NCBI GenBank assembly: GCA_963742275.1
Contig: CAVUKU010000003.1
Coordinates: 111,866 to 175,865, forward strand
Direction: 5' to 3'
Length of the DNA stretch: 64,000 nucleotides
Source: an uncultured Solirubrobacterales bacterium
Lineage (GTDB): Bacteria; Actinomycetota; Thermoleophilia; Solirubrobacterales; Solirubrobacteraceae
Numbering within the stretch: the first letter of the stretch is position 1; every line of letters begins with the position of its first letter. A program made the translations under genes and the position numbers. The notes under the pieces were generated by a model, which worked only from the letters and a program-made list of their open reading frames with translations, searched no databases and was not told the DNA's origin. This document shows, piece by piece, positions 15,668-42,622 of this stretch.

Positions 15668-15689
15668 CAGCCTTAGCAGGGAAAGGACC

Positions 15690-16184: not shown

Positions 16185-16333
16185 TGGTGCTGCAACCTCC
16201 GATGGTGGGCTCGGGTAATTGGGACTCACGACGGTTGTAAGTTTGAACGGCACCGGAGTCTGCCAGAACGGCGCCCGTGCGTGGCTTACCAATATGCGTA
16301 ATCGCGTTTCGCATAACACGAAACTATGGTCGG

Positions 16334-17593
16334 CTAAACGACGGTCGCCGATGACGGCGTGCGGACAATGCTTGGCGGCTCGGTGCGTTTGGTGCCCGCA
16401 TCCATGTAGCCAAGCTCCTCGAGTCGAAGAGCTATCTCAAGCGCAGTTAGGTCGAGTAGATCGCCAAGGGCCTTCCGGACATCGCCGAGATGGTTTTCGA
16501 CGGTTCGCCGGGTTAGCCCAATAGCCTTTCCCGCTGAGGAGGCGTTTCGGCCGTGCTTAAAGTCGGCGAGTAGTGACTTTCGCGCCGGCAGACCACACCC
16601 GTGCAGGCTGTTGAGCGGTTGGAGGTAGACTGCCCCATATATGCGGATCATCGCGTTGTTTTGCATAGTGGCCACCACCGGCAAGACGTCGGCGCAGCGG
16701 GTGACCTCTTGCGGCTTGTGACGAGCGATGAGCAGTGCCAACTGGGCTTCGTCGTGAGTCTGGCGCCAGCCTTCAAGTCCGTTCCCCGGATCACCGATCG
16801 CAAGCGTGGCGTGTCGACACCCGCTGGTGGAGAGTAAGCACTTGAACTCAGCGACGGACAGCTTTGTCTTGCTACCCAGCCACGCCCACACGGTCTCGTC
16901 ATCGTCACCCGCCACGGACAGTAGCTTCCGTCCGGGAGCAGCCCCCAGGCGCCGAAGGGTCTCGGCGCTCTCCGCTCCGACCGCGATCACCCCGAGATGC
17001 CAACGGGAGCCCACCTCGTAGTTCAGCTCCTTGAGCTCGGCCGGGTCGACGTCTTCGACGATCAGCCGGCGCACGAGCTTGGCGCAGCGGTGTTCCGGCG
17101 AGCAAGCGAGGTGCTCGGACTCTCGCTCGTACTCGTCTTCTACAGAGGCGACTATGTGGTCGAGCAGTGAGCCGTAGTTCTCGCGCAGATGCTCGAGCAC
17201 GGCCTCGTGATCTGCGTAGCCTGTCCGCTCGATCTCCTCGCGGATGAAGTCCATGAACCGCCCGTGCCCGGCCAGATAACGGCGCACCAGCACGCCCGGA
17301 CGCATGCCGATGCGAGCTGCGCGGCGTGCGTGAGCTGCCAGCGCCTGCGGCATCTCTCCCCACTCCCCTCCCCGCTCGATTGCATCCAGGCTGTACTCGA
17401 TGGTCGCCACGATAGCCGCGGCACGACCGCGCTCGTACTCGGCGTCGTGGTGGCCCAGCGGGTCGGTCTCCGCAGCAGGGATGCTGGCGTGGATCTCCTC
17501 GGCCATTTCCAGACCGCGTGATCGCAGCCCGGCGACCACGACGGCATAGACCTCCTCGGGCGACGCTGGGCAGTTCAGTACGCTTTCGCTCAT
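16334..17593 (-). CDS. PucR/CdaR-like transcriptional regulator
   Basis: AHARRAARIG, GLEGWRQTHDEAQ, C-terminal HTH NASSAGKAIGLTRRTVENHL. Confidence 0.82.
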   Translation of the reverse strand: MSESVLNCPASPEEVYAVVVAGLRSRGLEMAEEIHASIPAAETDPLGHHDAEYERGRAAAIVATIEYSLDAIERGGEWGEMPQALAAHARRAARIGMRPGVLVRRYLAGHGRFMDFIREEIERTGYADHEAVLEHLRENYGSLLDHIVASVEDEYERESEHLACSPEHRCAKLVRRLIVEDVDPAELKELNYEVGSRWHLGVIAVGAESAETLRRLGAAPGRKLLSVAGDDDETVWAWLGSKTKLSVAEFKCLLSTSGCRHATLAIGDPGNGLEGWRQTHDEAQLALLIARHKPQEVTRCADVLPVVATMQNNAMIRIYGAVYLQPLNSLHGCGLPARKSLLADFKHGRNASSAGKAIGLTRRTVENHLGDVRKALGDLLDLTALEIALRLEELGYMDAGTKRTEPPSIVRTPSSATVV

Positions 17594-17808
17594 CGGCTAC
17601 CGATGCTTTGCAGGCTTGGGAAGGCGCCAGGACATCAAGAGGCCGGCCCGGTCGTTAGGGCAAGCACCAGACGCACGATCGCACTCTGGAAGTGGTCCGC
17701 ATATGTCTATCAGGCAGAGACTGCAACGTGGCCGACCAATGTGGACGGTGCGACCGAACACATTGATCGGTTGTACTCTTCGGCATCAGTTGTACAGAAA
17801 GGCCAGTC

Positions 17809-19014
17809 CTACTCTTTGGACGATGAGTCCTCGGAGGCGAGATCCGCAAGCCGGAGCGCGACGTCGATCTCAGCGAGGCAGGCGCAGAGTGGCCGATCAA
17901 GCAGCTCCTCTACCAAGCGTAGGCGATTCCCAACTGTCTGCCGGCGGACCTTCGCTACATGAGCCGCAGAGGTGGAGTTGCATCCAGCGTCGATATAAGC
18001 ACGTAGCGTCTCAAGCAAATCCGCACTATCCGCGCGCCCCCGAATCAGCGCCAAGAACTCCCCGAGCCATGTTGCGAGCGTTTCATTTTCCAACGCAGCC
18101 ACCAGCAGCGGGCTTTCCGCATACCGCACAACTTGCTCCGGTCTGCGTAGCGCTCGCAACTGCGCTCCCCTGGCTTCGCGGTGCGTCTGACGCCATCCGT
18201 CGAGCCCCCATCCCGGCCCGCCGATAGCGAGTATCTCGCCCGTAGTCCCGTTGGGTGTCAGCACGCGCTCAATGTCCACGATCTTGAGCCGCTGAGATGC
18301 GCCGAACCAGGCCCACACGGTGCCGTCGTCGCACTGCGCCAGCAGGAGTTCGCAACGACAGTCGGCCTTCACGCGTCGGAAGGCGCCGTGAATGTCGGTC
18401 CCCGTGGCGATCACGCCGAAATGCCAGGAAGTGTCGAGCTCGTATTCCAACTCGGCCAGTTCCGCAAACTCGACCAGCTCCTTGGCGAGTAGCCTCCTCA
18501 CAATCTCAGTTCGACGCTGCTCGGGCGTACACACCAGTTGCTCGCGCTCGTCGTTGTACTCGCTTTCGATCGCCGCCGTCACACGTTCTAGCAACATCTC
18601 CAGAATCCTGCGGAGATTGTTGAGTGCAGACCCGTTGCTTGACAAGCCGATGTTCTCTGCCTCCTCCACGACAAACTCGCTGAGCCGGCGGTGCCCGGCG
18701 ACGTAGCGGCGGAGCACCGTGCCCAGGCTTACGCCCGCGCGTGCAGCGCGCCGTGCTTGAGCCGCCGCCTCTTGCGGGATCGGCACTGTCCATCCCAACC
18801 CGTGTTCGAGGGCTTCGAAGCAGGAGTCGAGAATCGCCGTCACCGCCGGCAACACTCCCACTTGATATGTCGGGTTTTGACCGCCTGCCGAGTCAGGCAC
18901 AGCCTCCTGGATGCGGGCATAGATCGTGTGGGCGATCTCCGAGTGACGTGCTCGCAATCGCCCGACGATCTCAGGTGCGGAGTCCTCGACGTGATCTTGC
19001 GGTACCGCGCTCAT
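17809..19014 (-). CDS. PucR/CdaR-like transcriptional regulator (tandem paralog)
   Basis: AQARRAARAG, GLDGWRQTHREA, HTH LETLRAYIDAGCNSTSAA..RQTVGNRL. Confidence 0.85.
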   Translation of the reverse strand: MSAVPQDHVEDSAPEIVGRLRARHSEIAHTIYARIQEAVPDSAGGQNPTYQVGVLPAVTAILDSCFEALEHGLGWTVPIPQEAAAQARRAARAGVSLGTVLRRYVAGHRRLSEFVVEEAENIGLSSNGSALNNLRRILEMLLERVTAAIESEYNDEREQLVCTPEQRRTEIVRRLLAKELVEFAELAELEYELDTSWHFGVIATGTDIHGAFRRVKADCRCELLLAQCDDGTVWAWFGASQRLKIVDIERVLTPNGTTGEILAIGGPGWGLDGWRQTHREARGAQLRALRRPEQVVRYAESPLLVAALENETLATWLGEFLALIRGRADSADLLETLRAYIDAGCNSTSAAHVAKVRRQTVGNRLRLVEELLDRPLCACLAEIDVALRLADLASEDSSSKE

Positions 19015-31020: not shown

Positions 31021-31562
31021 CCGTCCATTGCGATCGCGCGGTGGGCGCACGTTTAGACACCTCCGTCTCACGCGTTGCGGAACCGGCGGCGCCGCGCGAT
31101 TCTCTTCCGCCAGCCATCGCCAGCCACAGTGGGCGGGACCGCTAAGGAGTGTGGCCGATAGCCATTAGATGGGCGCTGGCGCCGAGTAGTGTGGGCTCGG
31201 TCTCGACTCGAACGGCTCGAGCACGGGATCTCGCTCGGTCATGTCCCTGGACCATTGTACGCCGCGCAACTCATCGCTCGACGAGCGGCAGCGATCCAGC
31301 GCTGCGGTCTCCACGCGAAGCCGCATCGGCTGTGGCAAACGCGGCCGCTTCCGCTACCGCCTGATGGGAAGCGTCTCCTTGCCCGAGGCCGTCGCTGCTG
31401 CGACGAGGACCAGTCTGAGACGCGGCGAGCTCTTCCGCTTCGCCCGGCAAGCGGGCGCGTGCGAGGCGCGTGCGGTAGCTGAAGCTTTGGTTGATGCGGA
31501 AAAATCGCAGGTCCGCCACCCCCCGAGCAGGTCTGCAGCCGGACACTGCGTCGAGTGAGAAC

Positions 31563-32942
31563 ATGGCTACTGTGCAGGAGACTCCGGCGACTCCCCAAGG
31601 AGGCCTTGCCACGCGGCCCTCGTGGCTGCGGCGCGTCGCTGCGATCGTGGCGCTCCTCGCGCCGCTCGCAATGGCCGTGGTTGCCATGATCGCGCTGGTG
31701 GGTGACGTCGCCATCGCAGTGCTGGCGGTCGCGCTCGTGCTGGTCGCGAACGCCGCCATCTGGTTCGCCTTGACCGAGCGCGGCGCGCGGCGCGCTGTCG
31801 GCGCGGTGGTCGCGGTGCTCACCGGGGCCGGTCTGGTTGTGGTGTTGGCGACTCACTGGCAAGGGCTGCTGGTGCTGGTCGCGCTGTTGTTCTTGCTCGG
31901 GTTGTTCGGGTTGACCGCGCGCTACGCACTGGGGCGGGCAGGGGAGATGGCGGTCTCGAGGGCGGCGGGCGCCGTCGTATCCATGGGCGTCGCCGACTCG
32001 GCTGCGCTGATCATCAACCTGAAGTCGGGCGGGGGGAAGGCCGAGCGCTTCGACCTCGCTGACCAAGCTCGGCGGCGAGGTATCGAGCCAATCGTCCTCG
32101 AGCCTGGCGATGATCTGCTCGAGCTCGCCGAGAGCGCCGTTGCGCGCGGCGCTCAGGTCATCGGGATGGCCGGGGGTGATGGGTCGCAGGCGCTTGTGGC
32201 GACGGTTGCCGCCCGGCGCGACGTCGCCCACGTCTGTATCCCGGCGGGGACGCGAAACCACTTCGCGCTCGATCTCGGCCTCGACCGCGACGACGTCGTC
32301 GGCGCGCTGGACGCGTTCACCGATGGCGTTGAGCGGCGCATCGACCTCGCGCGAGTGAACGACCACGTATTCGTCAACAACGCGTCGCTCGGCGTTTACG
32401 CGAAGGTCGTCCAATCCGAGGTCTACCGCAACGCCAAGCTCGAGACATGGACGCGCATGCTCCCCGACCTGCTCGGCCCCGACGCCGAACCGATCGACCT
32501 CGAGTTCACGTCGGCAAACGGGAGTAGCTGCTACGACGCCGCGCTCGTGCTCGTGTCGAACAACCCGTACGAGTTGACGCACCTCGCCGGCGCCGGCACC
32601 CGCGAGCGGATCGACTCCGGCATGCTCGGCATCGCGGCCGCCCGGGTGCGGGGCGCGGAGGTGGCCAGGCTCGTCGCACTCGAGCTGGTCGGCCAGGCGG
32701 GACGCTTCCCGGACCTGCTGTCGTGGTCGGCACGGGAGTTCGAGGTCCGCTCGGGCGGCCCAGTGGCGGTTGGCCTCGACGGCGAGGCGCTCGTACTCGA
32801 CCCGCCGTTGCGCTTCGAGTCGCTGCCCGGGGCGCTGCGCGTGCGGCTGCCCCGCAGTGCCGGCCTGGCACCGGGGGCCCGTGCGGTGGCACTCACAACC
32901 GCCAACCTAGGCACGCTCCTGCGGGTGGCCGCCGGCCGGTGA
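31563..32942 (+). CDS. Membrane-anchored diacylglycerol kinase-family protein
   Basis: N-terminal TMs; INLKSGGG, AGGDGS, PAGTRNHFALDLG, FVNNASLG, DGE. Confidence 0.9.
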   Translation: MATVQETPATPQGGLATRPSWLRRVAAIVALLAPLAMAVVAMIALVGDVAIAVLAVALVLVANAAIWFALTERGARRAVGAVVAVLTGAGLVVVLATHWQGLLVLVALLFLLGLFGLTARYALGRAGEMAVSRAAGAVVSMGVADSAALIINLKSGGGKAERFDLADQARRRGIEPIVLEPGDDLLELAESAVARGAQVIGMAGGDGSQALVATVAARRDVAHVCIPAGTRNHFALDLGLDRDDVVGALDAFTDGVERRIDLARVNDHVFVNNASLGVYAKVVQSEVYRNAKLETWTRMLPDLLGPDAEPIDLEFTSANGSSCYDAALVLVSNNPYELTHLAGAGTRERIDSGMLGIAAARVRGAEVARLVALELVGQAGRFPDLLSWSAREFEVRSGGPVAVGLDGEALVLDPPLRFESLPGALRVRLPRSAGLAPGARAVALTTANLGTLLRVAAGR

Positions 32943-33069
32943 GGAGCCCCACCGCACGGTTGGTGCTCGGCTTCGTTGCTCTTTTGCTCGTAGGCTGGGT
33001 AGTCGACGTGCTCCTCGGCACGGGTTGGACGGCGTTCGTGATGCGCGGTGTACGGGAGGCTGCGGCTCA

Positions 33070-33597
33070 GTGACAGTATTGGATCACGTGCGGAACCTGG
33101 ACCGCCGGCTGATGAGGCGCCCGCTCCGCGGCCGCTCACGGGCGCTGGACCGCTCCCTCGTCGCGATCACGCGATCGGCGAACTACTCGCGGATGTGGCT
33201 TCTCCTCGCGGGCGCACTCGCCGTGTCCGGGGGTAAGCAAGGGCGGAAGGCCGCCGGGCGGGGCGTCATCGCAATCGCGATCGCGGCGGCCGTCGCGAAC
33301 GGACCGGCCAAGCTGCTCGTGCGCCGGCGGCGGCCGCTCTCGAGCTCGCCGCCGGCGCTCATTCGGATGCCGCGGTCGACGTCGTTTCCATCGGGTCACA
33401 GCGCCGCGGCGTTCGCGTTCGTCACCGGCGCCTGCACCGAACTGCCGGCGCTCGCGCCAGTGCTCGTTCCGTTGGCGAGCGCCGTTGCTTACTCGCGCGT
33501 TCACACCGGCGTTCACTATCCTAGCGACGTCGCGGCCGGCGTGGGAATCGGGATCGGCTCCGGCGTGCTCTCCACACGTTGTCATCGCGGATACTAA
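33070..33597 (+). CDS. PAP2-family phosphatase
   Basis: K......RP, SFPSGH, SRVHTGVHYPSDV. Confidence 0.9.
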   Translation: MTVLDHVRNLDRRLMRRPLRGRSRALDRSLVAITRSANYSRMWLLLAGALAVSGGKQGRKAAGRGVIAIAIAAAVANGPAKLLVRRRRPLSSSPPALIRMPRSTSFPSGHSAAAFAFVTGACTELPALAPVLVPLASAVAYSRVHTGVHYPSDVAAGVGIGIGSGVLSTRCHRGY

Positions 33598-33853
33598 CGA
33601 GAACAACGGTCGCTTGTTCGTGATCGGGCTGCAGTCCGGAGCGATCGTCGAGCACGTCGTCGACATGACCGAGCCGTACCCCCAAGCCGCAAGGCGTGTT
33701 GACCGTGTCCTCTCTGCGGAGGGGTTCGAGCGATACGCGATTAGCGAGCAGAGACTAACCACACAGGCGCTCACTAACATGCGCCAGGGAAAGGCGACAC
33801 CCCTATCGGCCAGTTAGCTGACCGCCCGCTTGCGCGGAGCCCAGAACGCTCCC

Positions 33854-34621
33854 TTACCGTGGGCAGGGCACAGTGGTGGAGGCTCTGGAGCGACTACCGC
33901 CTTGGAAGGTAAACCTGGCGGAGAACCGGAATCCTCCGTGTGGGCATGTGTTGGGGAGCGGGATGCCTTTGGGTTCATAGCTGATGACGCGGCCGTGGGC
34001 GCGTTCGTGGTAGTGCAGGTGCAGTGGCCCGATGGTTGAGTGGAACGCTACGACGGCGGCATCGGGTCCTTCGGGGAGACTCGGTATGAGTGGGATGTTC
34101 ATGGCGAGGCGTCCGCCGAATGGAGGCGCGGCGGGGAGTACGAGAGCGGGGAACACGATCTGCGCGCTGACGGGATCTTCAGCGTTGACGTAGATCAGTA
34201 GCCGCAGATGTCCGGCCTGACCCGTGGTCCTAACGATAGTTACTTGCCCGATCTCGTGGACGATGGAGGGGCCGAGCGGGATCTCTGCGAGCGCGGTGCC
34301 GTACCCCATCAGGGAGTTCGCCGGGCACCCCGCCAACCCGGAGGCTTTGAGTGTCTGGGTGGAGCATGTCGCGAGGCCCAGTTCGCTCAAGGCAAACGCA
34401 AGTTCCTTGGGGTAGCTGATTTCGACCCTGGTCAGGGGCGGCGGCACGTCTTCGGCGGGCGCGGCGATCCGAAAACCGATGCCGATGGTTGTTTCTTGGC
34501 CGAGTCGCTCGGGGGTGAATGTGGCATTGAGCGTCACCGACTGCGCCGCAGACGCGATGCCGCACGCGCTGAGGCAGAGCGTAACGGTGACCAGTAGGCA
34601 GAGGGCTCGGTTTCGCCTCAC
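33854..34621 (-). CDS. Secreted Cys-containing hypothetical protein (paralog of 14882-15667)
   Basis: Signal peptide; shared motifs CPANSLMGYG, AQIVFPAL, CPHGGF.F...F.FQ.GS, CPR. Confidence 0.82.
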   Translation of the reverse strand: MRRNRALCLLVTVTLCLSACGIASAAQSVTLNATFTPERLGQETTIGIGFRIAAPAEDVPPPLTRVEISYPKELAFALSELGLATCSTQTLKASGLAGCPANSLMGYGTALAEIPLGPSIVHEIGQVTIVRTTGQAGHLRLLIYVNAEDPVSAQIVFPALVLPAAPPFGGRLAMNIPLIPSLPEGPDAAVVAFHSTIGPLHLHYHERAHGRVISYEPKGIPLPNTCPHGGFRFSARFTFQGGSRSRASTTVPCPR

Positions 34622-34630
34622 TGGGTGGTT

Positions 34631-35191
34631 TCAGTAGGAGAGTGACCCGGTGGTCTGCACGACGAGTGCGTAGGTGCGACGGTCGAATGTGCCGTAGAGC
34701 CCTCCGTGTCCGTGTGCGTGGGTGTATCGGCCGGTGCCGCCGGTGACGGTCAGGATGCCGGCGAAGCTTTCGTAGAGGCCGGAGCCGCGAGGGGTGGCTG
34801 TGCCGCGCCCGTCGATGGTCCCGTCGTGGGTGTAGATCGTGAAGGTGGCGGTGAAGGTGGAGCCGAGGTTGCAGTGGGCGCGCATACTGCCGGGGAGGGT
34901 TCCCTGCGCTGCGCCTTCCTCGAGTAGCTGCGAGCCCACGTGCCTGATGTAGCGCAGCTTGGCGGTGTCAGTGACACTGGCGACGCCTGCCATGTGGGCT
35001 TGGGGTGCGCGGCTATCGGAAGAGGCGACGCTGGAGGCTGCGTTGGTGGCGAGCGCCAGGAACAGGCCGGCGGCCACGAGTGCCGCGGGCCGTGCTATGG
35101 CCACCGCCGCCTTCCTCGCCACCGCCAGTCCAGTCGATTCCAAGGCTACGTGATTGCGCTCGTTGCGTCGCGGGATTCGTGATTTGGCCAT
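34631..35191 (-). CDS. Small secreted beta-barrel-like hypothetical protein (paralog of 15690-16184)
   Basis: Signal peptide; ESFAG.LTVTGGTGRYTHAHG. Confidence 0.8.
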   Translation of the reverse strand: MAKSRIPRRNERNHVALESTGLAVARKAAVAIARPAALVAAGLFLALATNAASSVASSDSRAPQAHMAGVASVTDTAKLRYIRHVGSQLLEEGAAQGTLPGSMRAHCNLGSTFTATFTIYTHDGTIDGRGTATPRGSGLYESFAGILTVTGGTGRYTHAHGHGGLYGTFDRRTYALVVQTTGSLSY

Positions 35192-35234
35192 TGAGATGGA
35201 TGCGTGTCTCTTATTGTTGGCAAAGTCGAACTGT

Positions 35235-36014
35235 TTAGAGGATCTTACATTGTCTTAGCCCGTCCCGGGCTGTGCCGGGCTGCCTCGACGCTGGCTGGTG
35301 CGGGGCCGATGGCCGTCCGCCGAAGCGGCGGTGCCGGTCGTTGAACTCGGCCAGCGATTCCTCTAGGGCTGCTCGCGTGAAGTCCGGCCAGAGCTCCTCG
35401 CGGAAGACGAGCTCAGAGTAGGCGGCCTGCCAGAGCAGGTAGTTGGACAGTCTCCGCTCGCCGCCGGTACGGATGATGAGGTCCGGGTCGTGCATCTCGG
35501 GTGCGTATAGGCAGCGGCGGAACTCCTCCTCGCCGCCGCCGGTGTACCGCTGTGCGGCGTCGAGGATCTCCGCCTGCCCGCCGTAGTTGAAAGCGATGAA
35601 CAGCCGCAGCCGCTGGTTGCCGGCGGTGAGCGCCTCGGCCCGGCGTATCTGCTCGACCAGCTCGCCGGGTACTCCCTCCCGGCGCCCGATGAAGCGCATT
35701 TGGACTCCCCCACGGTGAAGCTCGGGGGTCTCCCGGGCGATGCGCTGGGCGAGCATCGCGATGAGACCCAGAACCTCTTCCTTGGGCCGTGACCAGTTCT
35801 CTGTCGAGAACGAGTACACCGTTAGCTGCTCGATGCCGAGCTCCACCGCGTCGCGCAGGCGCGCCTTCAGCGTGTCGGCGCCCGCCTCGTACCCATCGTT
35901 GGTCGGCACGCGGCGGGAGCGTGCCCAGCGGCCGTTGCCGTCGGCGATGATCGCGACGTAGCGCGCTTGCGGGCGAGCCGACTCTCCCTCTGCGCCTGCC
36001 GTCGCGGGACGCAT
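35235..36014 (-). CDS. uppS: cis (Z)-polyprenyl diphosphate synthase (UppS family)
   Basis: AIIADGNGRWA, YSFSTENWSRP, NYGG, PDLIIRTGGERRLSNYLLWQAAYSEL; ATG at 36014 overlaps the upstream stop (TGATG). Confidence 0.92.
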   Translation of the reverse strand: MRPATAGAEGESARPQARYVAIIADGNGRWARSRRVPTNDGYEAGADTLKARLRDAVELGIEQLTVYSFSTENWSRPKEEVLGLIAMLAQRIARETPELHRGGVQMRFIGRREGVPGELVEQIRRAEALTAGNQRLRLFIAFNYGGQAEILDAAQRYTGGGEEEFRRCLYAPEMHDPDLIIRTGGERRLSNYLLWQAAYSELVFREELWPDFTRAALEESLAEFNDRHRRFGGRPSAPHQPASRQPGTARDGLRQCKIL

Positions 36015-37132
36015 CAGCGGCCGGTCCTGCGGGGGATCGCGCCGCGGGCTCGCTTGGCGGCCCGCCAGGAGCGCATGACCACGAGTGTGGGGGTGATGAG
36101 CGGCTCGAGCTCGCGGCGTACCCGCCGGGTCACGGGCCGGGCGAAGTCGCTGCCGGCGGTCGGCGCAGAGATGTAGTAGGCGGCGACACCCACGAGCGTC
36201 ATCGCGTGGTGTGCGCCGTTGGGTAGCGCGCCGGCGTGTTCGACCGCGCGTCGCGCGGCGCAGGCGAGGTCCTCGGCGAGCAGGTCGTGGTCCTCGTAGT
36301 AGCGCAGGTAGCCGACCCGCCCAGCCTGGGTATCGCACTGGTGGTCCACGAGGCTGTCGAGCATCGTGCTCAGGGCACAGATCGACAGGTAGGTCGTGTC
36401 GATCTCCGTGGCGTTCCCGGGGGTGGTGTGCTCGTCGGCGGCGGCGGCGATCAGCGCGTGGACGGCGAGTACGCAGGACGCCGCGCCGGCGAGGAACTCT
36501 CGCCAGCCAAGCGAGATGTCCTGCGCTTCGCTCCTCGCCCACTGCTCGAGCTGGGGGGTCCCGAGCGCTGGGACGGCGTGCGCACGGATCTGTGCCTCCG
36601 CGCACCGAGCCGCTGCTCCCCTCGCGGCAAGGGAGATCGCGGCCGTGGACGGCAGCCTGGCCAGTGCTCCTCGCACGACGCTGACGAGCTCTTCGAGGTA
36701 GCCGCCGTCGTCTGCGGGCCAGGAGGTGTAGTAGCCGCCCGTGGCCTTCGAGTCGAGGGTGATCGCGTCCGTGAACGCCCGGTAGAGGTCGTGTCCGTCG
36801 TCGAGGGGGTTGGCTGTCGGCTGCTCGACCAGTCTGTCGAGGTAGTCGTACATGACCTCGTAGGCCACGATCGCTTCGACGACGGTTTTGCGGTGCGCTC
36901 GTGGTGCGAGCGTTGCGAGGGTCGCCGCGACCTCGGCGTTGAAGCGCTCCTCGCGCAGCTCCTCGAGCGCGAGCGCGTGAAGCACGGGGTCGTTGATCGC
37001 GTGGGCGTGCCGCTCCCACCGTTTGAGTTGTGCGCCGAGGAGTGGGGCAACCGTCGCCCAGAAGCGGACGTTCGCGAGTACCAGGGCCACGCCGGCTCGT
37101 GCCAGGAGCCGGCGATCACCAAAGGCGGTCAC
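36014..37132 (-). CDS. Tetraprenyl-beta-curcumene synthase-like terpene cyclase (YtpB/DUF2600)
   Basis: W...A..I.DP.L..LAL, IVAYEVMYDYLD.L, DGGYL..LV, W.EF.A.A.S.L..HAL.A.A, LSTMLDSLVD...D. Confidence 0.82.
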   Translation of the reverse strand: MTAFGDRRLLARAGVALVLANVRFWATVAPLLGAQLKRWERHAHAINDPVLHALALEELREERFNAEVAATLATLAPRAHRKTVVEAIVAYEVMYDYLDRLVEQPTANPLDDGHDLYRAFTDAITLDSKATGGYYTSWPADDGGYLEELVSVVRGALARLPSTAAISLAARGAAARCAEAQIRAHAVPALGTPQLEQWARSEAQDISLGWREFLAGAASCVLAVHALIAAAADEHTTPGNATEIDTTYLSICALSTMLDSLVDHQCDTQAGRVGYLRYYEDHDLLAEDLACAARRAVEHAGALPNGAHHAMTLVGVAAYYISAPTAGSDFARPVTRRVRRELEPLITPTLVVMRSWRAAKRARGAIPRRTGR

Positions 37133-37207
37133 GGCTCTGCTCGGTCTTAGCCGGCTGCTGGTCGCTTGTGGTCGCGCGGCGCCTTGCGAGGTGGATGTGG
37201 ATGTCCT

Positions 37208-39751
37208 CTACTCATTCAGGGCAAGCGTCGCGGGTACACGCGAGGCGAACCAGCCGGGGAGGGACACAATCAGAAGAACCGCGGCGATGACAAGCAGGGG
37301 GATCTCAATCGGGCGCCCGCCTGTGGCCACTCCCGCGACCGGAAAGCCGGTGACGTGCTCGAGGTAGCCGTCGATCACGATCTGACCATAGACGCCGGCT
37401 ACCGCTCCGGTCAAGCATCCTGCGCTGAGCATCAGTGCGGATTCGACGAACAACACGAGCTTGATCTGGCGGCGCGGGGCGCCTTCGAGTCGTAGTTCGG
37501 CAAGCGAGCGTCGTCGCTGCCAGATACTCGACCCGAGTGCCGCGGCCAGCGCGAGGATCGCCGCAGCGACGAGCAGCGTCGAGATCTCTCCGAGCTGCCC
37601 AAGCCCTTCGGCGGCGATAGCATCGAATCGCTCTGCCCTGGTATGGGCGGTAACCGCTTCCAAGCCGCTCTGCGATCCCAGTGCGACCGCGATCTCGCGC
37701 AGTGCACGCCCAACGGGTGTGCCTGGCGTGAGGTTGATGCCAAGCGCTGTGGGCACCGTGGTGGCCCAGAACCGAGCGTAGTCGTTGATGTTCATGAGCA
37801 CCACTCCCGATGTCCAGCCAAAGTTGGTCGTCGTCGCTGCGAGCTTGAACTTGATGATGCCTGTGGCAGTCGGCAGGCTGAGTGATCCCCCGAGTCCAAC
37901 GTGCTGTTCTTCGGCGATCTGCTTGGAAACGGCGATCCAGCCTCCTTGCCGCAGGTGGGCCTCTGCGGTAACCGCGTTGCCTTGAACTACCTGGCTCGTG
38001 AGCAGCCCGATGTTCGCGTTGGGCGGGCGCGCGATGAGCCACACGCGCCGGTCGCCCATCGTCATGAACTCACTCTGAAAGGTATGAACGCCTGCGACTC
38101 CCGGTATCCGACTGATGCGGGATGCGTAGTGGTCGGGCGAGAAGCTGTTGGCTGCCGCGGTGTCTTTTGGGTTCAGCACCCAGATGGCAGCATCGGCTAC
38201 ATACGCGCCGGCGAAGGTGTGCAGCCCGTGGAGCAGGTCGTTGCGGGCGCTGCCGAGAGCGACGCTGCCAAAGAGCGCTACCGCCCCGGTCGCGGCTAGC
38301 GCCAACGAGCGCAGCGTCGTGGCCTTCAGAGACGAGAGCGCCAGCGGCAGGACCGTGAGTTTTGGGTTGCCGGATGCGACCGCCCCGCAGACGTGCAGGA
38401 CGAGTCCAAGCATCAAGGGAACCGCGAGCATGGTCGCCAATGCGAGCACGACACACGCGGCAAGTGCCGCGCCCGGTACCAACAAGAACAGAGCGCTCGC
38501 GAGCAGCACGAGGCCGGTCGCGACGCTCGCCAGCCATCTCCTGGCGCCCGGCGGCACACCGTCACTGCTCTCGCTTTCGGAGAAGACAGCATCCACGGGG
38601 CGTCCGCGGCGCAGATCCTGCAGTGGGACCAGCGAGGCGAGGCACATAGCCAGCATCCCTCCCCCGAGCGAGAGCAGGACGGGCTTGGCGCCGATCACGG
38701 TGCTCGTGCCCAACGTGAACGCCTGCGCAAGATACCCCGGGGAGGACTGGTGGAAGACCCCTATCGACAGGGCGTAGCCTCCGAGCAACCCCACCAGGGA
38801 CGCCGCGGCCCCCAAGCAAAGAGCCTGGAAGAGCACCATCTGCACGATCGCGGCGCGCGTGGCGCCATCGAGCCGCAAATCGGCGATCGCTTCGCGTCGC
38901 TCGGGTACGGTCAGCAGCATCGCGTTGAACGCGAAGAGAAATCCGATCAGGGCACTCAGACCAGCGAACAGCTCGCTCGCCTGGTTGCTCGGCTGTAGCG
39001 CCTGGCGCAGCACCGAAATATCCTGGTTCGCCGGTGCGACGGTGATCCTGCCGGCAGCAAGGGTCTGTAGCTCACGTTCGACGCTCGCCTTATGTCCGGG
39101 CTTGCTTTCGATGAAGATCCGCGTGACACGGCCCCGCAGCCCGGCGAGCTGCTGCAGCCGCGTGAGCGGCATGACTGCCACTCCGGCCTGGGCGAGCGCC
39201 CCGGCCGTTTCGTGGCCCAGCACCGCCGACACCTTCAACGGGATAGTGCGTCCACGTAGCTCCAGGTTGACCTCGATCGGCCGAGTCGGGTTGTAGGCCG
39301 GCAGTCCCAGCGCGCCCGCGCTCGACTGACTCAGCCCGATCCCGCCCGGCGACAGCGCTCCGATAGGCAGAGTATGCGCAAGACCGTCCAGCAGAGCGAG
39401 GCCAAGATTCGTTCCAGCGACATCGACCGTCTCCTGGCGGCCGTTGGGGGCGAGGACGGTCGCGGTCTGTTCCAGTAGCGACGCGGCCTGCGCGACTCCT
39501 GGGAGCCCTTCCACGCGGGTGAGCAGGTGTTCGTCGAAGCCGTTCGGACCGCGGGCGTGCAGCTGGAGGTCGGCGGGGCCGATAACCGTGTGGACCACAT
39601 CGCTCGCGGAGTTCGTAACGCTGCTGTTGGCGACCGTGACCGCGAACACCAGCGCCACGGCGATGGCTACCCCGATGCCGGCGAGCAGCTCCTGCATCGC
39701 GTGGACCCGCAGCCGCCTGCTGTAGAAGTAGACGAGCGCGCGTGTCCGCAT
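37208..39751 (-). CDS. ABC transporter permease, double FtsX/MacB-type
   Basis: Two repeats of TM, large extracytoplasmic loop and three TMs, with ERREAIADLRLDGA and QRRRSLAELRLEGA motifs. Confidence 0.9.
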   Translation of the reverse strand: MRTRALVYFYSRRLRVHAMQELLAGIGVAIAVALVFAVTVANSSVTNSASDVVHTVIGPADLQLHARGPNGFDEHLLTRVEGLPGVAQAASLLEQTATVLAPNGRQETVDVAGTNLGLALLDGLAHTLPIGALSPGGIGLSQSSAGALGLPAYNPTRPIEVNLELRGRTIPLKVSAVLGHETAGALAQAGVAVMPLTRLQQLAGLRGRVTRIFIESKPGHKASVERELQTLAAGRITVAPANQDISVLRQALQPSNQASELFAGLSALIGFLFAFNAMLLTVPERREAIADLRLDGATRAAIVQMVLFQALCLGAAASLVGLLGGYALSIGVFHQSSPGYLAQAFTLGTSTVIGAKPVLLSLGGGMLAMCLASLVPLQDLRRGRPVDAVFSESESSDGVPPGARRWLASVATGLVLLASALFLLVPGAALAACVVLALATMLAVPLMLGLVLHVCGAVASGNPKLTVLPLALSSLKATTLRSLALAATGAVALFGSVALGSARNDLLHGLHTFAGAYVADAAIWVLNPKDTAAANSFSPDHYASRISRIPGVAGVHTFQSEFMTMGDRRVWLIARPPNANIGLLTSQVVQGNAVTAEAHLRQGGWIAVSKQIAEEQHVGLGGSLSLPTATGIIKFKLAATTTNFGWTSGVVLMNINDYARFWATTVPTALGINLTPGTPVGRALREIAVALGSQSGLEAVTAHTRAERFDAIAAEGLGQLGEISTLLVAAAILALAAALGSSIWQRRRSLAELRLEGAPRRQIKLVLFVESALMLSAGCLTGAVAGVYGQIVIDGYLEHVTGFPVAGVATGGRPIEIPLLVIAAVLLIVSLPGWFASRVPATLALNE

Positions 39752-39797
39752 GAGAGTGTGCCGTGCCGCCGGTGGCTCGGAGCCTCGCAACGCCACC

Positions 39798-40550
39798 TCA
39801 CCCAGGGATCGGCGCAGACTGCGGCTGCGCATCAACGGGGTCGCGTACCTCGCCGGCGGGGGGCCCGTCGGTGAGCTTGCCGTCGCGCAGCGTTGTGCAG
39901 CGGTCGGCGATCAGGGCAGCCTCCCGATCGTGAGTGACGAGCAGCACCCGCGCGCCGCGCTCATGCGCGACGGAGCGCAACAGCTGCACGATCTCCCTGC
40001 CGCGTACGCTGTCGAGGTTCCCTGTCGGCTCGTCGGCGAGGATCAGACTCGGCTCTCCCGCGAGCGCGCGGGCGATAGCGACGCGCTGGCGCTCTCCGCC
40101 GGAGAGCTTCTCGGGTGTGTGCTCGAGCCGGTCAGCGAGCCCCACCCGCTCGAGCCAGGGGATCGCGCGAGCCTGGGCCTCACGCATCCCGACCCCGCCG
40201 ATGAGCAGCTTCCGGGCCGCGTTCTCGATCACCGGGACTCGGGGCATGAGATGGAAGTGCTGAAAGACGAACCCGACCTCCCTGAGCAGGTACTCACTCG
40301 CCTGACCTTCAGACATCGAAGGTACGTCGCGCCCCTGGTAGCGAATCGTGCCCTCCTCGGGCTTCATCAGCGCAGCGATCAGCAGCAGCAGTGTCGTCTT
40401 GCCCGAGCCGCTGGGGCCAAGCAACGCGACCATCTCGCCGGGCGCGATCGTAAGGCTCACGCCATCGACGGCGCGCACCTCCTCGCCCGCGCCGTGGTAG
40501 TACTTGACCACGCTGTCGAGTTCAAGCAACGCCGCCCGCTCCTCGCGCAA
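39798..40550 (-). CDS. ABC transporter ATP-binding protein (LolD/MacB type)
   Basis: [31 protein letters not shown]. Confidence 0.95.
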
Positions 40551-41247
40551 GGCGGCGGCGCGCGAGATCGCTCACGGGCGCGAGATCGGGCGTCAGCTCG
40601 CCGAACAGTTTGCCTTTCCCGAGGGACAGCACACGGTCGGCTCCGAGCATCCCCGTGCCGTCACCGGCGCTCGCAAGGATCGCGATCCCGTCGTCGGCGA
40701 AGGAACGCAGGAGCTTCAGGATCCCGTCCCGGTCGAGCGACTCGACACCGATCGTCGGCTCATCGACTACCAGCAGGCGCGGGCTGGAAGTCAGCGCGCG
40801 AGCGAGGGCCACCCGCATCGTTTCCTCGATCTTCAGCTCGCCTGCCATCAGCGTGGCGCACGAGACGGCCTGCACGCGCTCCAGTGCCCTCCAGGCGCGG
40901 GTCAGCGCCGTGGACTGCGGGACCCTGCGCGCGAGCTGGCTCGCCATCATCTGGTCGAGGACAGTCAGACCCTTGGCGGATCGGAACTCCCGATGGCAGT
41001 AGCTGATCCCCCCACCGAGCATCTCCCCGCCACGCTCGGCCAGGTCGCGGCCATCGAAGCGCACCACACCCATACTGGGCGCTTCGACCCCGGCCGCGAT
41101 CCGCAAGAGCGTCGAGCGTCCCGAGTGTCGCTCGCCCAGCACCACAACCATTTCGCCCCTGTCGATCACGAGCGACAGATCGTCGAGCGCGACACACGCA
41201 CCGCGGTTGTAGCTCTTGCCTACATGCTCAAGCTCGAGGAGGATCAT
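40522..41247 (-). CDS. Degenerate ABC ATPase-like protein
   Basis: Walker A GERHSGRS (K to R), signature LKIEE, Walker B VVDEPT intact, no H-loop His (LASAGD). Confidence 0.8.
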   Translation of the reverse strand: MILLELEHVGKSYNRGACVALDDLSLVIDRGEMVVVLGERHSGRSTLLRIAAGVEAPSMGVVRFDGRDLAERGGEMLGGGISYCHREFRSAKGLTVLDQMMASQLARRVPQSTALTRAWRALERVQAVSCATLMAGELKIEETMRVALARALTSSPRLLVVDEPTIGVESLDRDGILKLLRSFADDGIAILASAGDGTGMLGADRVLSLGKGKLFGELTPDLAPVSDLARRRLARGAGGVA

Positions 41248-41854
41248 CGCGATCGACGCTCCTAGCCGCCCAGGCCTCGAAGATGTCGTGGGCGTGCCGC
41301 AGCCACGAGAGCATCGCCCCGCCGACCCTACGCTGCTGATCGGCCACGAGCTCATCGATCAGCTCACTACGAGCGCCGACCGCGGCCCCGGCCGGCTGCT
41401 GTCCGATCTGCCCCGCCCCCTTGAGATACTGGCGCTCAAAGCGGCCGAGGACATGCAACGCCGCCCGAGGGTTGTCGGCGAGGATCGCGAGCTGGCGCAC
41501 CCATAGCTCCTGGCGTCTGCGCTCGACATCGACCTGCTCCACGAGCCACTCGACATAGCTGTTGACCCCTGACTGGGTGGCCTGGTAGTGGGGCTTGGGC
41601 TGGCGGCCTTCTCCGATCCCGGGAATGGTCGCGATCAGCCCCCTCGCCTCCAGCCCGTTGAGCGCCGAGTAAACATGCGATTCGCCGCTGATGGGAAGCA
41701 CGTCTCCATACATGCGCTGGAAGCGGTGGTAGAGCTCGAGGCCATAGCTCGGACGCTCGATCACGAGGCCAAGGACCGCCCAAGAGACCGACGAGGTCAT
41801 CGCCCGTCTAGGCGCCTTCTTTTCCGGTCTCCCAGCCATCGACTGGTCCAGCAT
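41228..41854 (-). CDS. PadR-family transcriptional regulator
   Basis: AVLGLVIERPSYGLEL....HVYSALNGLEARGLI...HYQAT..G. Confidence 0.82.
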   Translation of the reverse strand: MLDQSMAGRPEKKAPRRAMTSSVSWAVLGLVIERPSYGLELYHRFQRMYGDVLPISGESHVYSALNGLEARGLIATIPGIGEGRQPKPHYQATQSGVNSYVEWLVEQVDVERRRQELWVRQLAILADNPRAALHVLGRFERQYLKGAGQIGQQPAGAAVGARSELIDELVADQQRRVGGAMLSWLRHAHDIFEAWAARSVDRDDPPRA

Positions 41855-42262
41855 AGTGGAAGTTCGCCCCCGCAGAAAAGACCCGTTTCCTTCTCGAATG
41901 GACACTTCCAAACTTTGAACCCTCAAACGATGCCTACCCAAACCGCGCCGCAGACCCCATCATGCCCGCAGTGGCGTCCAAGGACACACGACGGACAACG
42001 CAGACCGGGAGCCGTGCTTGCCCGCGGTGGCCGCGCATAGCGACCACCGGCGGCGTGAGCGACCGGCGAAGCGATGCCCGCGGGCGCGACGGGTGCTACC
42101 CGCTCTGGCACTCTCGCCGGAAAGGCCACCCAGGCTGGCGTCGCCCTGGCGCTGCGTTCTCCTGGGTCGGTCGTCGTGTCCCGAGGCGGGCCGAGCGTCC
42201 ACAAGACTGCCCTGGGGTCAGACGCTCGGCCCGCCCAGACGCTACCACCCATGCCAGGCGTC

Positions 42263-42622
42263 ATGGTTGACGGCGTCGTTCACCTACGGCTGACTCCCCA
42301 ACAGGTTGGGGAAGTGCTGCGCAACGTGAGCGTGGATGGGGCGGTAAGCGTGATCAGGCCTGCCTCAGACTGGGAGCTGCCATCCTCGACGGTCCTTGAT
42401 GAGCGCTCCCGTCAGGCGGAGGGGACTCAATTCTCGATGTCGCTCATAAGAGGGCTGCTAGTCCTCGCGTATTTCATGAGCGGCAAGCCCGTTGGCGTTT
42501 CCGACATGGCAGCGGAGCTTCAGATGGAGCCGAGCACAGCGAGTAGATTGATCCACACGCTAGAGCTCCTAGGGTTGATCGAGCGAGACCCTGGAACGGG
42601 CAGATCTCGGATCGTCCGATGA
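42263..42622 (+). CDS. IclR-type HTH-only DNA-binding protein
   Basis: SLIRGLLVL.....VGVSDMAAELQMEPSTASRLIHTL...GLIERDP at the C-terminus; no effector domain. Confidence 0.75.
   Translation: MVDGVVHLRLTPQQVGEVLRNVSVDGAVSVIRPASDWELPSSTVLDERSRQAEGTQFSMSLIRGLLVLAYFMSGKPVGVSDMAAELQMEPSTASRLIHTLELLGLIERDPGTGRSRIVR

Follow-up and report, generated by a model that had tools for sequence, protein, structure and literature searches.

Why would an uncultured soil bacterium of the Solirubrobacterales place a YtpB-like terpene synthase homologue beside a cis-prenyltransferase, an ABC transporter and two exported proteins, and what would such an arrangement make? The question arises from the window, a 64,000-nucleotide stretch of contig CAVUKU010000003.1, for which a sequence-only reading had proposed that a cyclic Z-polyprenyl terpene is synthesized, exported and handled by secreted carriers, perhaps serving as a signal. 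Domain searches and coordinates place every cassette gene that it named on the minus strand, and its interpretation overall is partly supported. Our own assessment leans, with somewhat better than even confidence, towards a PadR-headed "make-and-extract" operon producing a long-chain terpenoid from a Z-type (cis) polyprenyl diphosphate.

The eight co-oriented genes run in the order PadR, degenerate ATPase, canonical ATPase, permease, DUF2600, UppS, sec1 and sec2 (Table 1), and all eight ORFs are unbroken in the window genome. The true start of PadR is likely near 41800, and the degenerate ATPase likely begins at the ATG at 41247, overlapping the PadR end. The TGATG coupling described earlier is correct: the UppS ATG starts at 36014, and its A is the last base of the DUF2600 TGA, an overlap that recurs in many orthologues. 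A search of RNA runs found the locus in none of them.

Table 1. Genes of the cassette and the divergent ORF upstream, in window coordinates.
Feature	Coordinates	Strand	Basis
PadR-family regulator (first cassette gene)	41228..41941	-	PF03551 E=1.2e-8, residues 56-126; maximal ORF
Degenerate ABC nucleotide-binding protein	40522..41355	-	PF00005 E=7e-19
Canonical ABC ATPase, LolD/MacB/FtsE type	39798..40550	-	PF00005 E=1.6e-37
Fused double-FtsX permease, 875 aa	37208..39835	-	PF02687 in two stretches; PF12704 MacB_PCD
DUF2600, class IB "large-terpene" synthase homologue, class U	36014..37132	-	PF10776 E=1.4e-59
UppS paralogue (cis-prenyltransferase), 259 aa	35235..36014	-	PF01255 E=5e-72; TIGR00055
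sec1, exported dirigent/allene-oxide-cyclase-like 8-stranded beta-barrel (predicted)	34631..35191	-	N-terminal hydrophobic segment; AlphaFold model
sec2, exported Ig-like beta-sandwich (predicted), four invariant Cys	33854..34621	-	Lipoprotein in window genome (LSAC lipobox)
Divergent HTH_IclR ORF	42074..42622	+	PF09339 E=3e-11, residues 123-173; no IclR_C

The two regulators differ in how closely they belong to the cassette. PadR occupies the same position in about 38 of the 40 orthologous loci and would probably act as the operon repressor. The divergent gene does carry the HTH_IclR domain that had been read from its sequence, but it lacks IclR_C and is not a conserved component, so its place as a functional cassette part is doubtful. 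In 14 of 33 orthologous loci a full-length IclR gene stands divergently upstream of PadR, and the window ORF is not its orthologue.

The window cassette is one of eight paralogous DUF2600-ABC cassettes in its genome, a feature that had escaped the sequence-only reading, and relatives hold up to 17; a sample of 300 Actinomycetota genomes from other genera contained no DUF2600. Permease paralogues flank seven of the eight DUF2600 genes, the eighth being flanked by a remnant. The DUF2600 tree contains a branch of 100% SH-aLRT support, with 36 P450/IclR-linked copies on one side and, on the other, the UppS/sec side, every UppS-linked copy (36) and every sec-linked copy (8), the window copy included. 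The ABC transporter is the invariant partner of DUF2600; UppS is the mark of just one of the two cassette classes. In the sister class, a P450 directly follows DUF2600 in 16 of 28 cassettes, the classic arrangement of a synthase with a tailoring enzyme.

A synteny survey recovered the orthologous cassette in 40 species genomes, with DUF2600 identities of 39-89% (at least 52% in 36 of the 40; the lowest-identity orthologue, L087, falls in class P on the DUF2600 tree). UppS adjoins DUF2600 in 26 of these cassettes and is absent from 14, and sec1-sec2 are present in 28. Furthermore, across 30 related Solirubrobacterales genomes all 22 non-housekeeping UppS loci examined adjoin DUF2600 and all 28 housekeeping loci adjoin frr, while five same-genus genomes without DUF2600 hold exactly one UppS each. 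At least 16 metagenomic protein clusters carry PF10776 and PF01255 together; at least 11 of them are clean fusions with an intact DUF2600 C-terminus and a linker of 25-45 residues, the synthase domain being N-terminal and the prenyltransferase domain C-terminal; these fusions come from other soil genomes. The conserved gene order, the strict co-occurrence, the overlapping stop and start codons and the natural fusions together give good support to the proposed partnership of a YtpB-like enzyme with a dedicated cis-prenyltransferase, which is not a matter of chance. Where UppS has been lost from the orthologous cassette, a second class-U cassette with UppS is usually present in the genome, and in three genomes a class-U DUF2600 occurs without any cassette UppS. 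The missing genes in the 14 cassettes and in these three genomes suggest that a dedicated UppS is dispensable, or that the housekeeping product substitutes.

Joining a dedicated prenyltransferase to the synthase that consumes its product is also seen in fungal chimeras such as fusicoccadiene synthase (PaFS), in which the synthase domain is likewise N-terminal and the prenyltransferase domain C-terminal. Plant clusters of a cis-prenyltransferase and a TPS (tomato zFPS/NDPS1) follow the same principle, and in plants cis-prenyl diphosphates can serve as committed precursors of terpenes (PMC7422722). However, the fungal enzymes combine a trans-prenyltransferase with a canonical class I domain and the plant enzymes are short-chain (C10-C20) and unfused, whereas the window operon brings together, in a bacterium and alongside ABC transporter genes, a class IB domain and a cis-prenyltransferase that is of UppS type and probably long-chain.

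The cassette UppS scores 222 bits against TIGR00055 (cut-off 110). A separate housekeeping uppS lies elsewhere in the genome (C4:193144-193878) among the neighbours tsf-frr-uppS-dxr-ispG, so that the cassette gene is not the sole uppS, a circumstance that the sequence-only reading had named as part of what would count against it. The two proteins share 78% identity, and for this reason the cassette enzyme may only produce ordinary carrier lipid. Mapping the cassette and housekeeping labels onto the UppS tree takes 3 changes as against about 19 in shuffles, and branches are longer for cassette copies; the cassette UppS departs from the housekeeping clade at the positions equivalent to E. coli F89, L137 and I141.

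The transporter belongs with the type VII systems (MacB, LolCDE, FtsEX, BceAB, YbbP-type), with which it shares FtsX domains, a MacB periplasmic core domain and a LolD/MacB-like ATPase. It differs from them in that the two permease halves form one protein, for which hydropathy indicates about 10 TM segments and a pair of extracytoplasmic loops of roughly 220 aa, and in its conserved pairing of one catalytic with one non-catalytic ATPase. The latter has Arg for Lys in Walker A (GERHSGRS) and retains the Walker B Asp-Glu, but lacks both the LSGGQ signature and the H-loop His, a degeneracy conserved in orthologues; the canonical ATPase keeps every catalytic motif and has LolD as its best NCBIfam match (213 bits, under the cut-off of that model). 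By sequence, the nearest solved relative of the permease is LolC (E=1e-4), and the cassette contains no TolC/MFP partner, LolA/B or BceRS. LolCDE takes lipid-anchored cargo out of the outer leaflet and hands it to a carrier, and we adopt it as the model for the window system; export of the product would follow by analogy only, type VII ABCs acting also in resistance and signalling.

Both sec1 and sec2 carry signal sequences and are conserved parts of the cassette. Neither has a Pfam match at E<=0.01, sec1 showing a weak Dirigent match at E=0.02; within the sec1 family, 17 of 29 members match Pfam Dirigent below threshold (best E=2.3e-5). The AlphaFold model of sec1 (pLDDT >90 over residues 65-186) aligns by VIA-align at Z 11-13 to dirigent proteins, AOC, Diels-Alderases and PodA. 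Its predicted fold is a dirigent/AOC-type ligand-binding barrel, with the eight strands seen in AtDIR6 (5lal), GePTS1 (6ooc), AOC2 (1zvc), PloI4 (7x7z) and AbyU, at rmsd 2.4-3.7 Å over 103-118 residues and identities of just 11-18%, and with invariant Tyr-x-His and Arg residues. Members of this superfamily bind hydrophobic small molecules and often guide cyclizations without cofactors; sec1 is set apart by being exported in a monoderm bacterium, within a terpenoid/ABC cassette. The modelled barrel thus fits the secreted carriers that had been envisaged and, together with the LolC-nearest FtsX/MacB_PCD permease, makes for surroundings compatible with lipid export. For sec2, close orthologues have a lipobox and distant ones a Sec-type signal, the invariant cysteines are C86, C99, C226 and C253, and the top fold matches of the model (pLDDT 86), at Z 8.8 (YweA/BslA) and Z 8.0 (YcnI), are too low to be decisive.

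The closeness of the cassette UppS to the housekeeping enzyme, together with its retained catalytic residues, would also suit an envelope-stress or antibiotic-protection cassette in place of a biosynthetic one, which we regard as unlikely. The FtsX-type ABC system would then act on lipid II-cycle intermediates as BceAB acts on undecaprenyl-PP, protecting or releasing them, while the additional UppS restocks carrier lipid during an attack. Surplus or antibiotic-trapping polyprenyl diphosphates would be cleared by DUF2600, with PadR as the stress sensor. Indeed, B. subtilis ytpB belongs to the sigma-M cell-envelope stress regulon, PadR regulators frequently govern detoxification and efflux genes, and the many paralogous cassettes per genome resemble the multiple Bce-type modules of Firmicutes. 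Nevertheless, a BceRS-type two-component system is absent at the locus, the permease has two MacB-type extracytoplasmic domains as against the single domain of BceB, and the P450 of the sister cassettes points to product tailoring. The sec1 barrel and the natural fusions also suit substrate channelling better than salvage, since it would be wasteful to fuse the enzyme that makes a carrier lipid to one that breaks this lipid down.

The second alternative concerns the chemistry of DUF2600 itself, whose best solved relative is BalTS of B. alcalophilus (5yo8, E=1.3e-28 over about 300 aligned residues). The window protein shares PF10776 and its length with BalTS and with YtpB/BsuTS, the tetraprenyl-beta-curcumene synthase of B. 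subtilis, and keeps five of the six essential Asp, the Asp residues of the Asp-rich motifs being essential in BalTS (PMC5939612). Its motifs read DYLDRLVE (motif 1) and LDSLVDHQCD (motif 2, D-S-L-V-D-x-x-x-D), and the acidic positions are invariant across 87 lineage sequences. Unlike in the Bacillus enzymes, the third Asp of motif 1 is Glu throughout these sequences. The residue preceding the last Asp of motif 2 differs between the cassette classes, being Arg or Cys as against Glu. The active site looks intact from these motifs, with activity of the Asp-to-Glu variant a prediction. The characterized class IB enzymes take all-E C25-C35 substrates (PMC5939612), supplied in Bacillus by the trans-prenyltransferases HepS/HepT, which counts against the reading that we favour, since DUF2600 would there have to accept Z-polyprenyl, and perhaps C50-C55, chains. 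Furthermore, the Bacillus genes adjoin ytpA, with neither an ABC transporter nor a cis-prenyltransferase as neighbour, whereas DUF2600 here always accompanies a type VII ABC system and, in class U, a UppS paralogue as well.

It is conceivable, though still less likely than a protective role, that DUF2600 is no strict terpene synthase, and instead either a polyprenyl transferase that attaches the Z-polyprenyl chain to an acceptor (small molecule, lipid or exported protein) or a hydrolase-like lyase whose product is simply free polyprenol, used to remodel the envelope; the lipidated product would then be handled by the ABC system together with the exported proteins. The motif substitutions, the conserved and partly lipoprotein partners and the acyclic products of BalTS (PMC5939612) are in keeping with this, as is a terpene-cyclase fold repurposed elsewhere for prenyl transfer (bioRxiv 10.1101/2020.03.31.014811). 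Against it, every characterized family member is a synthase (PMC5939612), the cassette has no conserved gene for making an acceptor and its flanking genes vary between loci, and the P450s that accompany the sister class are suited to a hydrocarbon scaffold.

The "IADGN" and "GY" peculiarities reported for UppS are both present, but neither is a family feature. Position 2 of the first motif is A (16), T (8) or S (4) in cassette copies and the lineage housekeeping copies read ITDGN, so that by sequence comparison "IADGN" is a lineage trait and not diagnostic. Catalytic residues are kept in cassette copies, with one exception in the window: a Tyr at the position of E. coli His43 (codon 35889-35891), found in 1 of 28 cassette copies and in none of the 119 homologues with the motif among the 120 closest database homologues taken. 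It is private to this genome and possibly damaging; H43A in E. coli UppS causes an approximately 1000-fold loss of activity (PMC3095679). Soil contigs of about 97% identity from two runs show no difference at this codon among the matches listed, and the change is accordingly population-fixed and no assembly error, if that reading of the contigs holds. Least probable of the alternatives is a partly decayed cassette, its UppS crippled by this change and its IclR cut to an HTH stub, so that the locus reflects an ancestral function or DUF2600 now uses the housekeeping product: repeated UppS loss from orthologous cassettes, a shortened cassette at C1:779-783 kb of the same genome and the missing IclR effector domain agree with it, but the unbroken ORFs, the retained stop/start coupling and the soil contigs do not, and a Tyr could still hydrogen-bond the diphosphate.

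For the make-and-extract operon that we favour, the UppS paralogue would extend an allylic primer with IPP to a medium or long Z-polyprenyl diphosphate, probably near the C50-C55 carrier lipid in length, though not necessarily identical, since its tunnel residues differ slightly from those of the housekeeping enzyme. DUF2600 would take up this product and ionize the diphosphate via Mg2+ at its D..D...E and D...D...D motifs, so that a strongly hydrophobic product, either a hydrocarbon or an alcohol, enters the membrane; with a Z alpha-double bond, 1,6-ring closure could be direct, making a cyclic product a possibility. The double-FtsX permease, driven by the active and non-catalytic ATPases, would then extract the lipid from the outer leaflet as LolCDE does, and the dirigent-like barrel and Ig-like (lipo)protein would receive it and bind, carry or further shape it.

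A precedent comes from non-pathogenic Mycobacterium, where a Z-type C35 polyprenyl diphosphate is the precursor of the cyclic C35 terpene heptaprenylcycline (Sato et al., 2008, cited in PMC10301674). The logic proposed here is the same, actinobacterial cyclization of a Z-prenyltransferase product, though the chain length may differ. To our knowledge, the heptaprenylcycline pathway has no assigned cyclase gene, ABC transporter or gene cluster. The operon in the window probably makes and exports a long-chain Z-type terpenoid that has yet to be described.

The best-supported point of our analysis is a functional link between the DUF2600 protein, a class IB 'large-terpene' synthase homologue, and the UppS-family cis-prenyltransferase whose gene follows it, a link to which conserved gene order, strict co-occurrence, translational coupling and recurrent gene fusion all point. 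The sequence-only reading had placed a YtpB-like cyclase and an UppS-like enzyme in one operon, and its gene set is borne out: eight co-oriented genes are closely packed, the first four as overlapping maximal ORFs, and those for the two exported proteins, sec1 and sec2, lie 9 nt apart. The TGATG coupling it described is also there, DUF2600 and UppS having one base in common (ATG at 36014), with the UppS coordinates corrected in the table below. Among orthologues of the window DUF2600 in 40 species genomes (39-89% identity, 36/40 at ≥52%), the order PadR, degenerate ATPase, ATPase, permease, DUF2600 recurs in nearly all 40 loci; UppS lies within the cassette in 26 of them, its start mostly overlapping or nearly abutting the preceding stop, and the sec1-sec2 pair is found in 28. 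In the most distant orthologous loci UppS stands upstream or 3' of sec2. For co-occurrence, every UppS homologue in 30 of the 40 genomes was located and its surroundings read. All 28 loci adjacent to frr are housekeeping copies, and all 22 remaining loci adjoin DUF2600, within an ATPase-ATPase-permease-DUF2600-UppS-sec1-sec2 module. Seven genomes without UppS in the orthologous cassette have one in a second, paralogous cassette, and about 25 of the 29 genomes with a DUF2600 of the window's class (class U, below) retain at least one intact cassette UppS; same-genus genomes without DUF2600 (n=5) have one UppS each.

The two domains, PF10776 and PF01255, are furthermore found on one protein in at least 16 clusters (90% identity; 494-646 aa) from JGI, ENA, NCBI and Logan assemblies. 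Judged on the protein sequences only, in 11 of these the C-terminal helix of DUF2600 is intact and is joined to the UppS domain by a variable, charged or Pro-rich linker 25-45 residues long. Three of the 16 resemble frameshift read-throughs and were not counted as clean, nor was one further cluster in which the scan found neither motif 1 of DUF2600 nor the DGN motif of UppS. The fused protein clusters P0089, P0241-P0249 and P0251, from metagenomes and MAGs, have DUF2600 N-terminal and UppS C-terminal and are annotated at source merely as 'undecaprenyl/polyprenyl diphosphate synthase'. A complete Solirubrobacterales-type cassette also occurs in a 7-Mb MAG labelled 'uncultured Alphaproteobacteria' (locus L080, CAWJDW010000004.1), together with a second UppS of only 49-50% identity that has frr and dxr neighbours of its own; the bin appears to be mixed or wrongly labelled.

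Locations of the cassette and of related features. Positions without a contig are those of the window; C1, C2 and C4 are contigs of the same genome (G000).
Feature	Location	Strand	Description
Cassette	33854-41941	-	eight genes
sec2	33854-34621	-	exported Ig-like lipoprotein
sec1	34631-35191	-	exported dirigent/AOC-like barrel
UppS	35235-36014	-	cis-prenyltransferase family
Tyr codon in UppS	35891-35889	-	TAC, Tyr42, E. coli His43 position
DUF2600	36014-37132	-	class IB synthase homologue
Degenerate ATPase	40522-41355	-
DAGK_cat lipid-kinase-like membrane protein and PAP2-superfamily phosphatase	31491-33597	+	converge on cassette end
Second sec2/sec1-like pair	14882-16319	-	remote from any DUF2600 gene
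Two PucR-type regulator genes	16334-19014	-	GGDEF_2, HTH_30
Second UppS	C4:193144-193878		tsf-frr-uppS-dxr-ispG neighbourhood
L012	C1:779800-782900		decayed sister cassette
L018	C1:2031175-2034500		permease and ATPase without DUF2600
Further sec2/sec1 pair	C2:483302-484394
Further sec2/sec1 pair	C1:1655111-1656276

The genome has eight DUF2600 genes, seven of which adjoin a paralogous double-FtsX permease (840-880 aa) and ATPases and the eighth a permease remnant, with partners that vary: a P450 directly 3' of DUF2600 (twice), a full-length IclR (several), a TetR, a second sec2/sec1 pair. DUF2600 is present in 18 of 24 other genomes of the same GTDB genus, with up to 17 matches per genome; 16 genomes representing five further families of the order have none, and neither do 300 evenly drawn Actinomycetota genomes (199 genera, ≥85% complete, seven of the same family). 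An FtsX permease lies within 1.5 kb of 27 of 28 DUF2600 copies in relatives, and a P450 follows DUF2600 in 16 of the 28. Since DUF2600 is nearly always flanked by a permease, the ABC transporter is its invariant partner in this lineage. In a tree of 88 DUF2600 sequences, one branch with 100% SH-aLRT support parts two cassette classes: class P, 36 copies that are followed by a P450, an IclR or no partner gene, and with which the most distant orthologue (L087, 39% identity) is placed; and class U, to which the window's copy belongs, with all 36 UppS-linked and all eight sec1/sec2-linked copies, plus some further copies from which these partners have been lost. At the decayed locus L012, DUF2600, a P450 and three IclR-type genes are left, the FtsX permease is reduced to its last ~190 residues and the ATPases are absent. 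Locus L018, whose paralogous double-FtsX permease and ATPase stand beside a distant sec2-like gene, indicates that the transporter family can exist apart from the synthase.

The window DUF2600 matches PF10776 over profile positions 1-311 of 328 (E=1.4e-59) and its Bacillus alcalophilus relative BalTS (PDB 5yo8) over residues 25-324 (E=1.3e-28). Motif 1 of class IB enzymes, DYLDNLxD, has three Asp, each of them essential in BalTS (PMC5939612); the window's DYLDRLVE keeps two and has Glu at the third position, as do all 87 lineage DUF2600 sequences compared. Motif 2 (reference DY(F,L,W)IDxxED, three Asp) reads LDSLVDHQCD in the window, with all three Asp present and the Bacillus Tyr and Glu replaced, and its Asp are kept in nearly all 87 sequences, with one Asn at the middle position. 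Across these 87 members the lineage patterns are D-[YF]-L-D-x-x-x-E and L-D-S-x-x-D-x-x-x-D, the acidic positions being near-invariant. With five of the six motif Asp kept and a lineage-wide Glu as the sixth, the motifs suggest that DUF2600 is likely an active, metal-dependent ionising enzyme. The label 'tetraprenyl-beta-curcumene synthase' for DUF2600 and 'undecaprenyl diphosphate synthase' for the cassette UppS probably both mislead.

The 875-aa permease has two FtsX domains (PF02687 in two stretches) and a MacB periplasmic core domain (MacB_PCD, PF12704), with about ten TM segments by hydropathy and two extracytoplasmic loops, each of ~220 residues, between hydrophobic segments; among solved structures, LolC is the closest to it in sequence (E=1e-4). 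Its FtsX modules with large extracytoplasmic domains, together with a PF00005 ATPase, make this a type VII ABC system, the canonical ATPase being of LolD/MacB type. The degenerate ATPase and its orthologues have lost the Walker A Lys (replaced by Arg), the LSGGQ signature and the H-loop His, and keep the Walker B Asp-Glu. Such a subunit, paired with a second NBD in a heterodimer, would weaken both composite ATP sites, whereas in classical asymmetric ABC exporters one is weakened.

The main rival to a biosynthetic role is that the cassette serves as an envelope-stress module or protects the carrier lipid, in keeping with the ties of B. subtilis YtpB to sigma-M and bacitracin. BceB permeases have ten TM segments and a single extracellular domain, placed between TM7 and TM8, and a two-component system of BceRS type is encoded next to them. 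The cassette permease, in contrast, has two extracytoplasmic domains, the first directly after TM1, and the MacB_PCD match, and Pfam searches found no histidine kinase or response regulator in the window cassette or, for four of its seven paralogues, among the neighbouring genes selected. The window cassette does not have the make-up of a BceAB-type module, and the absence of Bce-type features weakens the stress-module explanation, against which both the P450 partners of the sister class and the DUF2600-UppS fusions also speak.

For a biosynthetic pairing of UppS with DUF2600, the sequence-only reading had asked whether a separate housekeeping uppS exists, a sole uppS with a cyclase that does not accept its product counting against it. 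The genome as searched (3.69 Mb, four contigs, 87% complete) has two PF01255 genes, so the window copy is not the only one; the second is frr-linked and 78% identical to it. By family the window protein is clearly UppS (PF01255, 242 bits against a cut-off of 27; TIGR00055, 222.5 bits against 109.55), and by context it is not of the housekeeping type, as it follows DUF2600 and lacks an frr-uppS-(cdsA)-dxr neighbourhood. The residues that we take to be catalytic or substrate-binding in E. coli UppS (D26, R30, S71, N74, W75, R77, E81, R194, E198, R200, S202 and E213) are all in the window copy and kept across 28 cassette copies, with one Asp at E213; the C-terminal RxG is also kept, as RRFGG in the window. 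The positions that set cassette copies apart from housekeeping copies include three that line the product tunnel (E. coli numbering): Leu versus Phe at F89, Leu versus Ile at L137 and Ile versus Val at I141. Both groups have a small residue at A69 and a bulky one at L137, which speaks against a short-chain, Z-FPP-type enzyme and argues for a cassette UppS making medium or long chains, near the carrier lipid.

In a tree of 57 UppS sequences, housekeeping copies form a tight, short-branched group with the cassette copies outside it on longer branches, and the two labels need three changes, against ~19 in shuffles. This pattern indicates that cassette UppS is an ancient paralogue passed on with the cassettes; tree and synteny rule out a recent duplication of uppS within the species as a full explanation. 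Two deviations in the window UppS had been flagged, IADGN and GY, but neither is a mark of neofunctionalisation: the former is a trait of the lineage, in which housekeeping copies have ITDGN, and the latter is private to this genome (1/28 cassette copies). At the E. coli His43 position the window copy has Tyr; 27/28 cassette copies and 28/29 housekeeping copies have His there. Of the 120 closest homologues the motif could be located in 119, and all of these have His. In E. coli UppS, His43 contacts the diphosphate, and H43A brings a 1000-fold loss of activity (PMC3095679). The assignment to the UppS family thus stands, while the window's own copy may have impaired activity. Contigs of ~97% identity from two soil runs that span the Tyr codon show no difference there among the matches listed, which is moderate support; if this reading holds, the Tyr is real and not an assembly error.

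The PadR regulator is recognised by its PF03551 winged-helix domain (35.3 bits, cut-off 27). A divergent IclR-HTH ORF had also been noted with the cassette, and we considered it as the regulator. In 14 of 33 orthologous loci a full-length IclR does lie divergent and upstream of PadR, but the window ORF has the HTH only and is not orthologous to it, and we reject it in this role. The PAP2 family takes in undecaprenyl-PP phosphatases; the flanking PAP2 phosphatase and DAGK-like kinase accompany the cassette in just one of 40 loci (L084), and we reject them as polyprenyl-phosphate enzymes of the system. These two genes, like those for an AraC regulator and a glyoxalase, recur beside the cassette in no more than one other genome; the surroundings of the cassette are variable. 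G+C rises stepwise along the window, from 57-64% up to ~26 kb through 65-69% at 26-48 kb, where the cassette is located, to 69-75% past 48 kb. A promoter and terminator scan of 33400-42400 gave no signal above shuffle expectation, and no RNA run with the locus was found; in DNA soil runs, contigs over the locus come solely from the ~97%-identical strain.

Neither exported protein matches a Pfam family at E≤0.01. sec1, which has a hydrophobic segment at its N-terminus, comes nearest to Dirigent (PF03018; E=0.02, 15 bits against a cut-off of 29), and 17 of 29 members of its family match Dirigent below threshold (best E=2.3e-5). Its structural model is an eight-stranded barrel (residues 65-186, pLDDT above 90 in the barrel) that superimposes on 6ooc, 5lal and 1zvc with Z of 12.7, 12.0 and 10.9 (rmsd 2.4-2.8 Å over 106-117 residues) and, more broadly, on dirigent proteins, allene oxide cyclases, beta-barrel Diels-Alderases and pyocyanin demethylase (Z 11-13, rmsd 2.4-3.7 Å, 103-118 residues). 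The model thus places sec1 in the dirigent/AOC beta-barrel superfamily, whose barrels bind hydrophobic small molecules and often steer cyclisations. sec2 is an Ig-like sandwich with four invariant Cys; its close orthologues bear a lipobox, the distant ones a Sec-type signal peptide. Its fold matches (Foldseek pdb, VIA wide) are generic Ig-like and weak, the best at Z 8.8 (YweA/BslA) and 8.0 (YcnI), and we assign to it nothing beyond export. Elsewhere in the window, the second sec2/sec1-like pair lies downstream of the PucR-type regulator genes, with 42% (sec2) and 30% (sec1) identity to the cassette pair.

The association of these genes is observed. For chemistry and transport we draw on family knowledge and on analogy with LolCDE (extraction), fungal prenyltransferase-synthase chimeras and plant cis-prenyltransferase/TPS clusters, and we lean slightly towards the full sequence of events in which cassette UppS would make a Z-polyprenyl diphosphate, DUF2600 would convert this by ionisation into a strongly hydrophobic terpene, the type VII ABC system would draw the terpene out of the membrane, and the exported barrel and sandwich proteins would take it over. 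A further analogue is the mycobacterial Z-type C35 terpene cited in PMC10301674. A bolder and rather unlikely version for class U would have 'giant' head-to-tail terpenes (up to ~C50-C55) formed when a channelled, at times fused enzyme pair ionises or cyclises an undecaprenyl-like Z-polyprenyl diphosphate, extracted in MacB fashion and finished or chaperoned outside by the dirigent-like barrel. If true, this would be the largest known terpene-synthase substrate, the first cis-prenyltransferase/terpene-synthase chimera and the first terpene as cargo of a type VII ABC system.

All parts of the cassette belong to known families. In the literature searched, on DUF2600, Solirubrobacterales terpene synthase and bacterial cis-prenyltransferase/terpene-synthase pairs or fusions, the system is not described, nor does any class IB synthase appear there as the partner of a cis-prenyltransferase or a type VII ABC transporter. 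The class IB terpene synthases known to us are a handful of Bacillus enzymes acting on all-E C25-C35 chains, and bacterial cis-prenyltransferases have, to our knowledge, been seen almost solely as makers of the cell-wall carrier lipid. The conserved, at times fused pair gives a first concrete hypothesis on the substrate of this large and uncharacterised family of cassettes, of which one genome of the uncultured Solirubrobacterales abundant in soil can have as many as 17, and points to a new class of terpenoids from Z-polyprenyl chains. The proposed terpene would furthermore be a candidate for the natural cargo of the double-FtsX ABC transporter, a poorly understood type that includes a non-catalytic ATPase, and the cassette suggests a role for dirigent-like barrels in bacteria.
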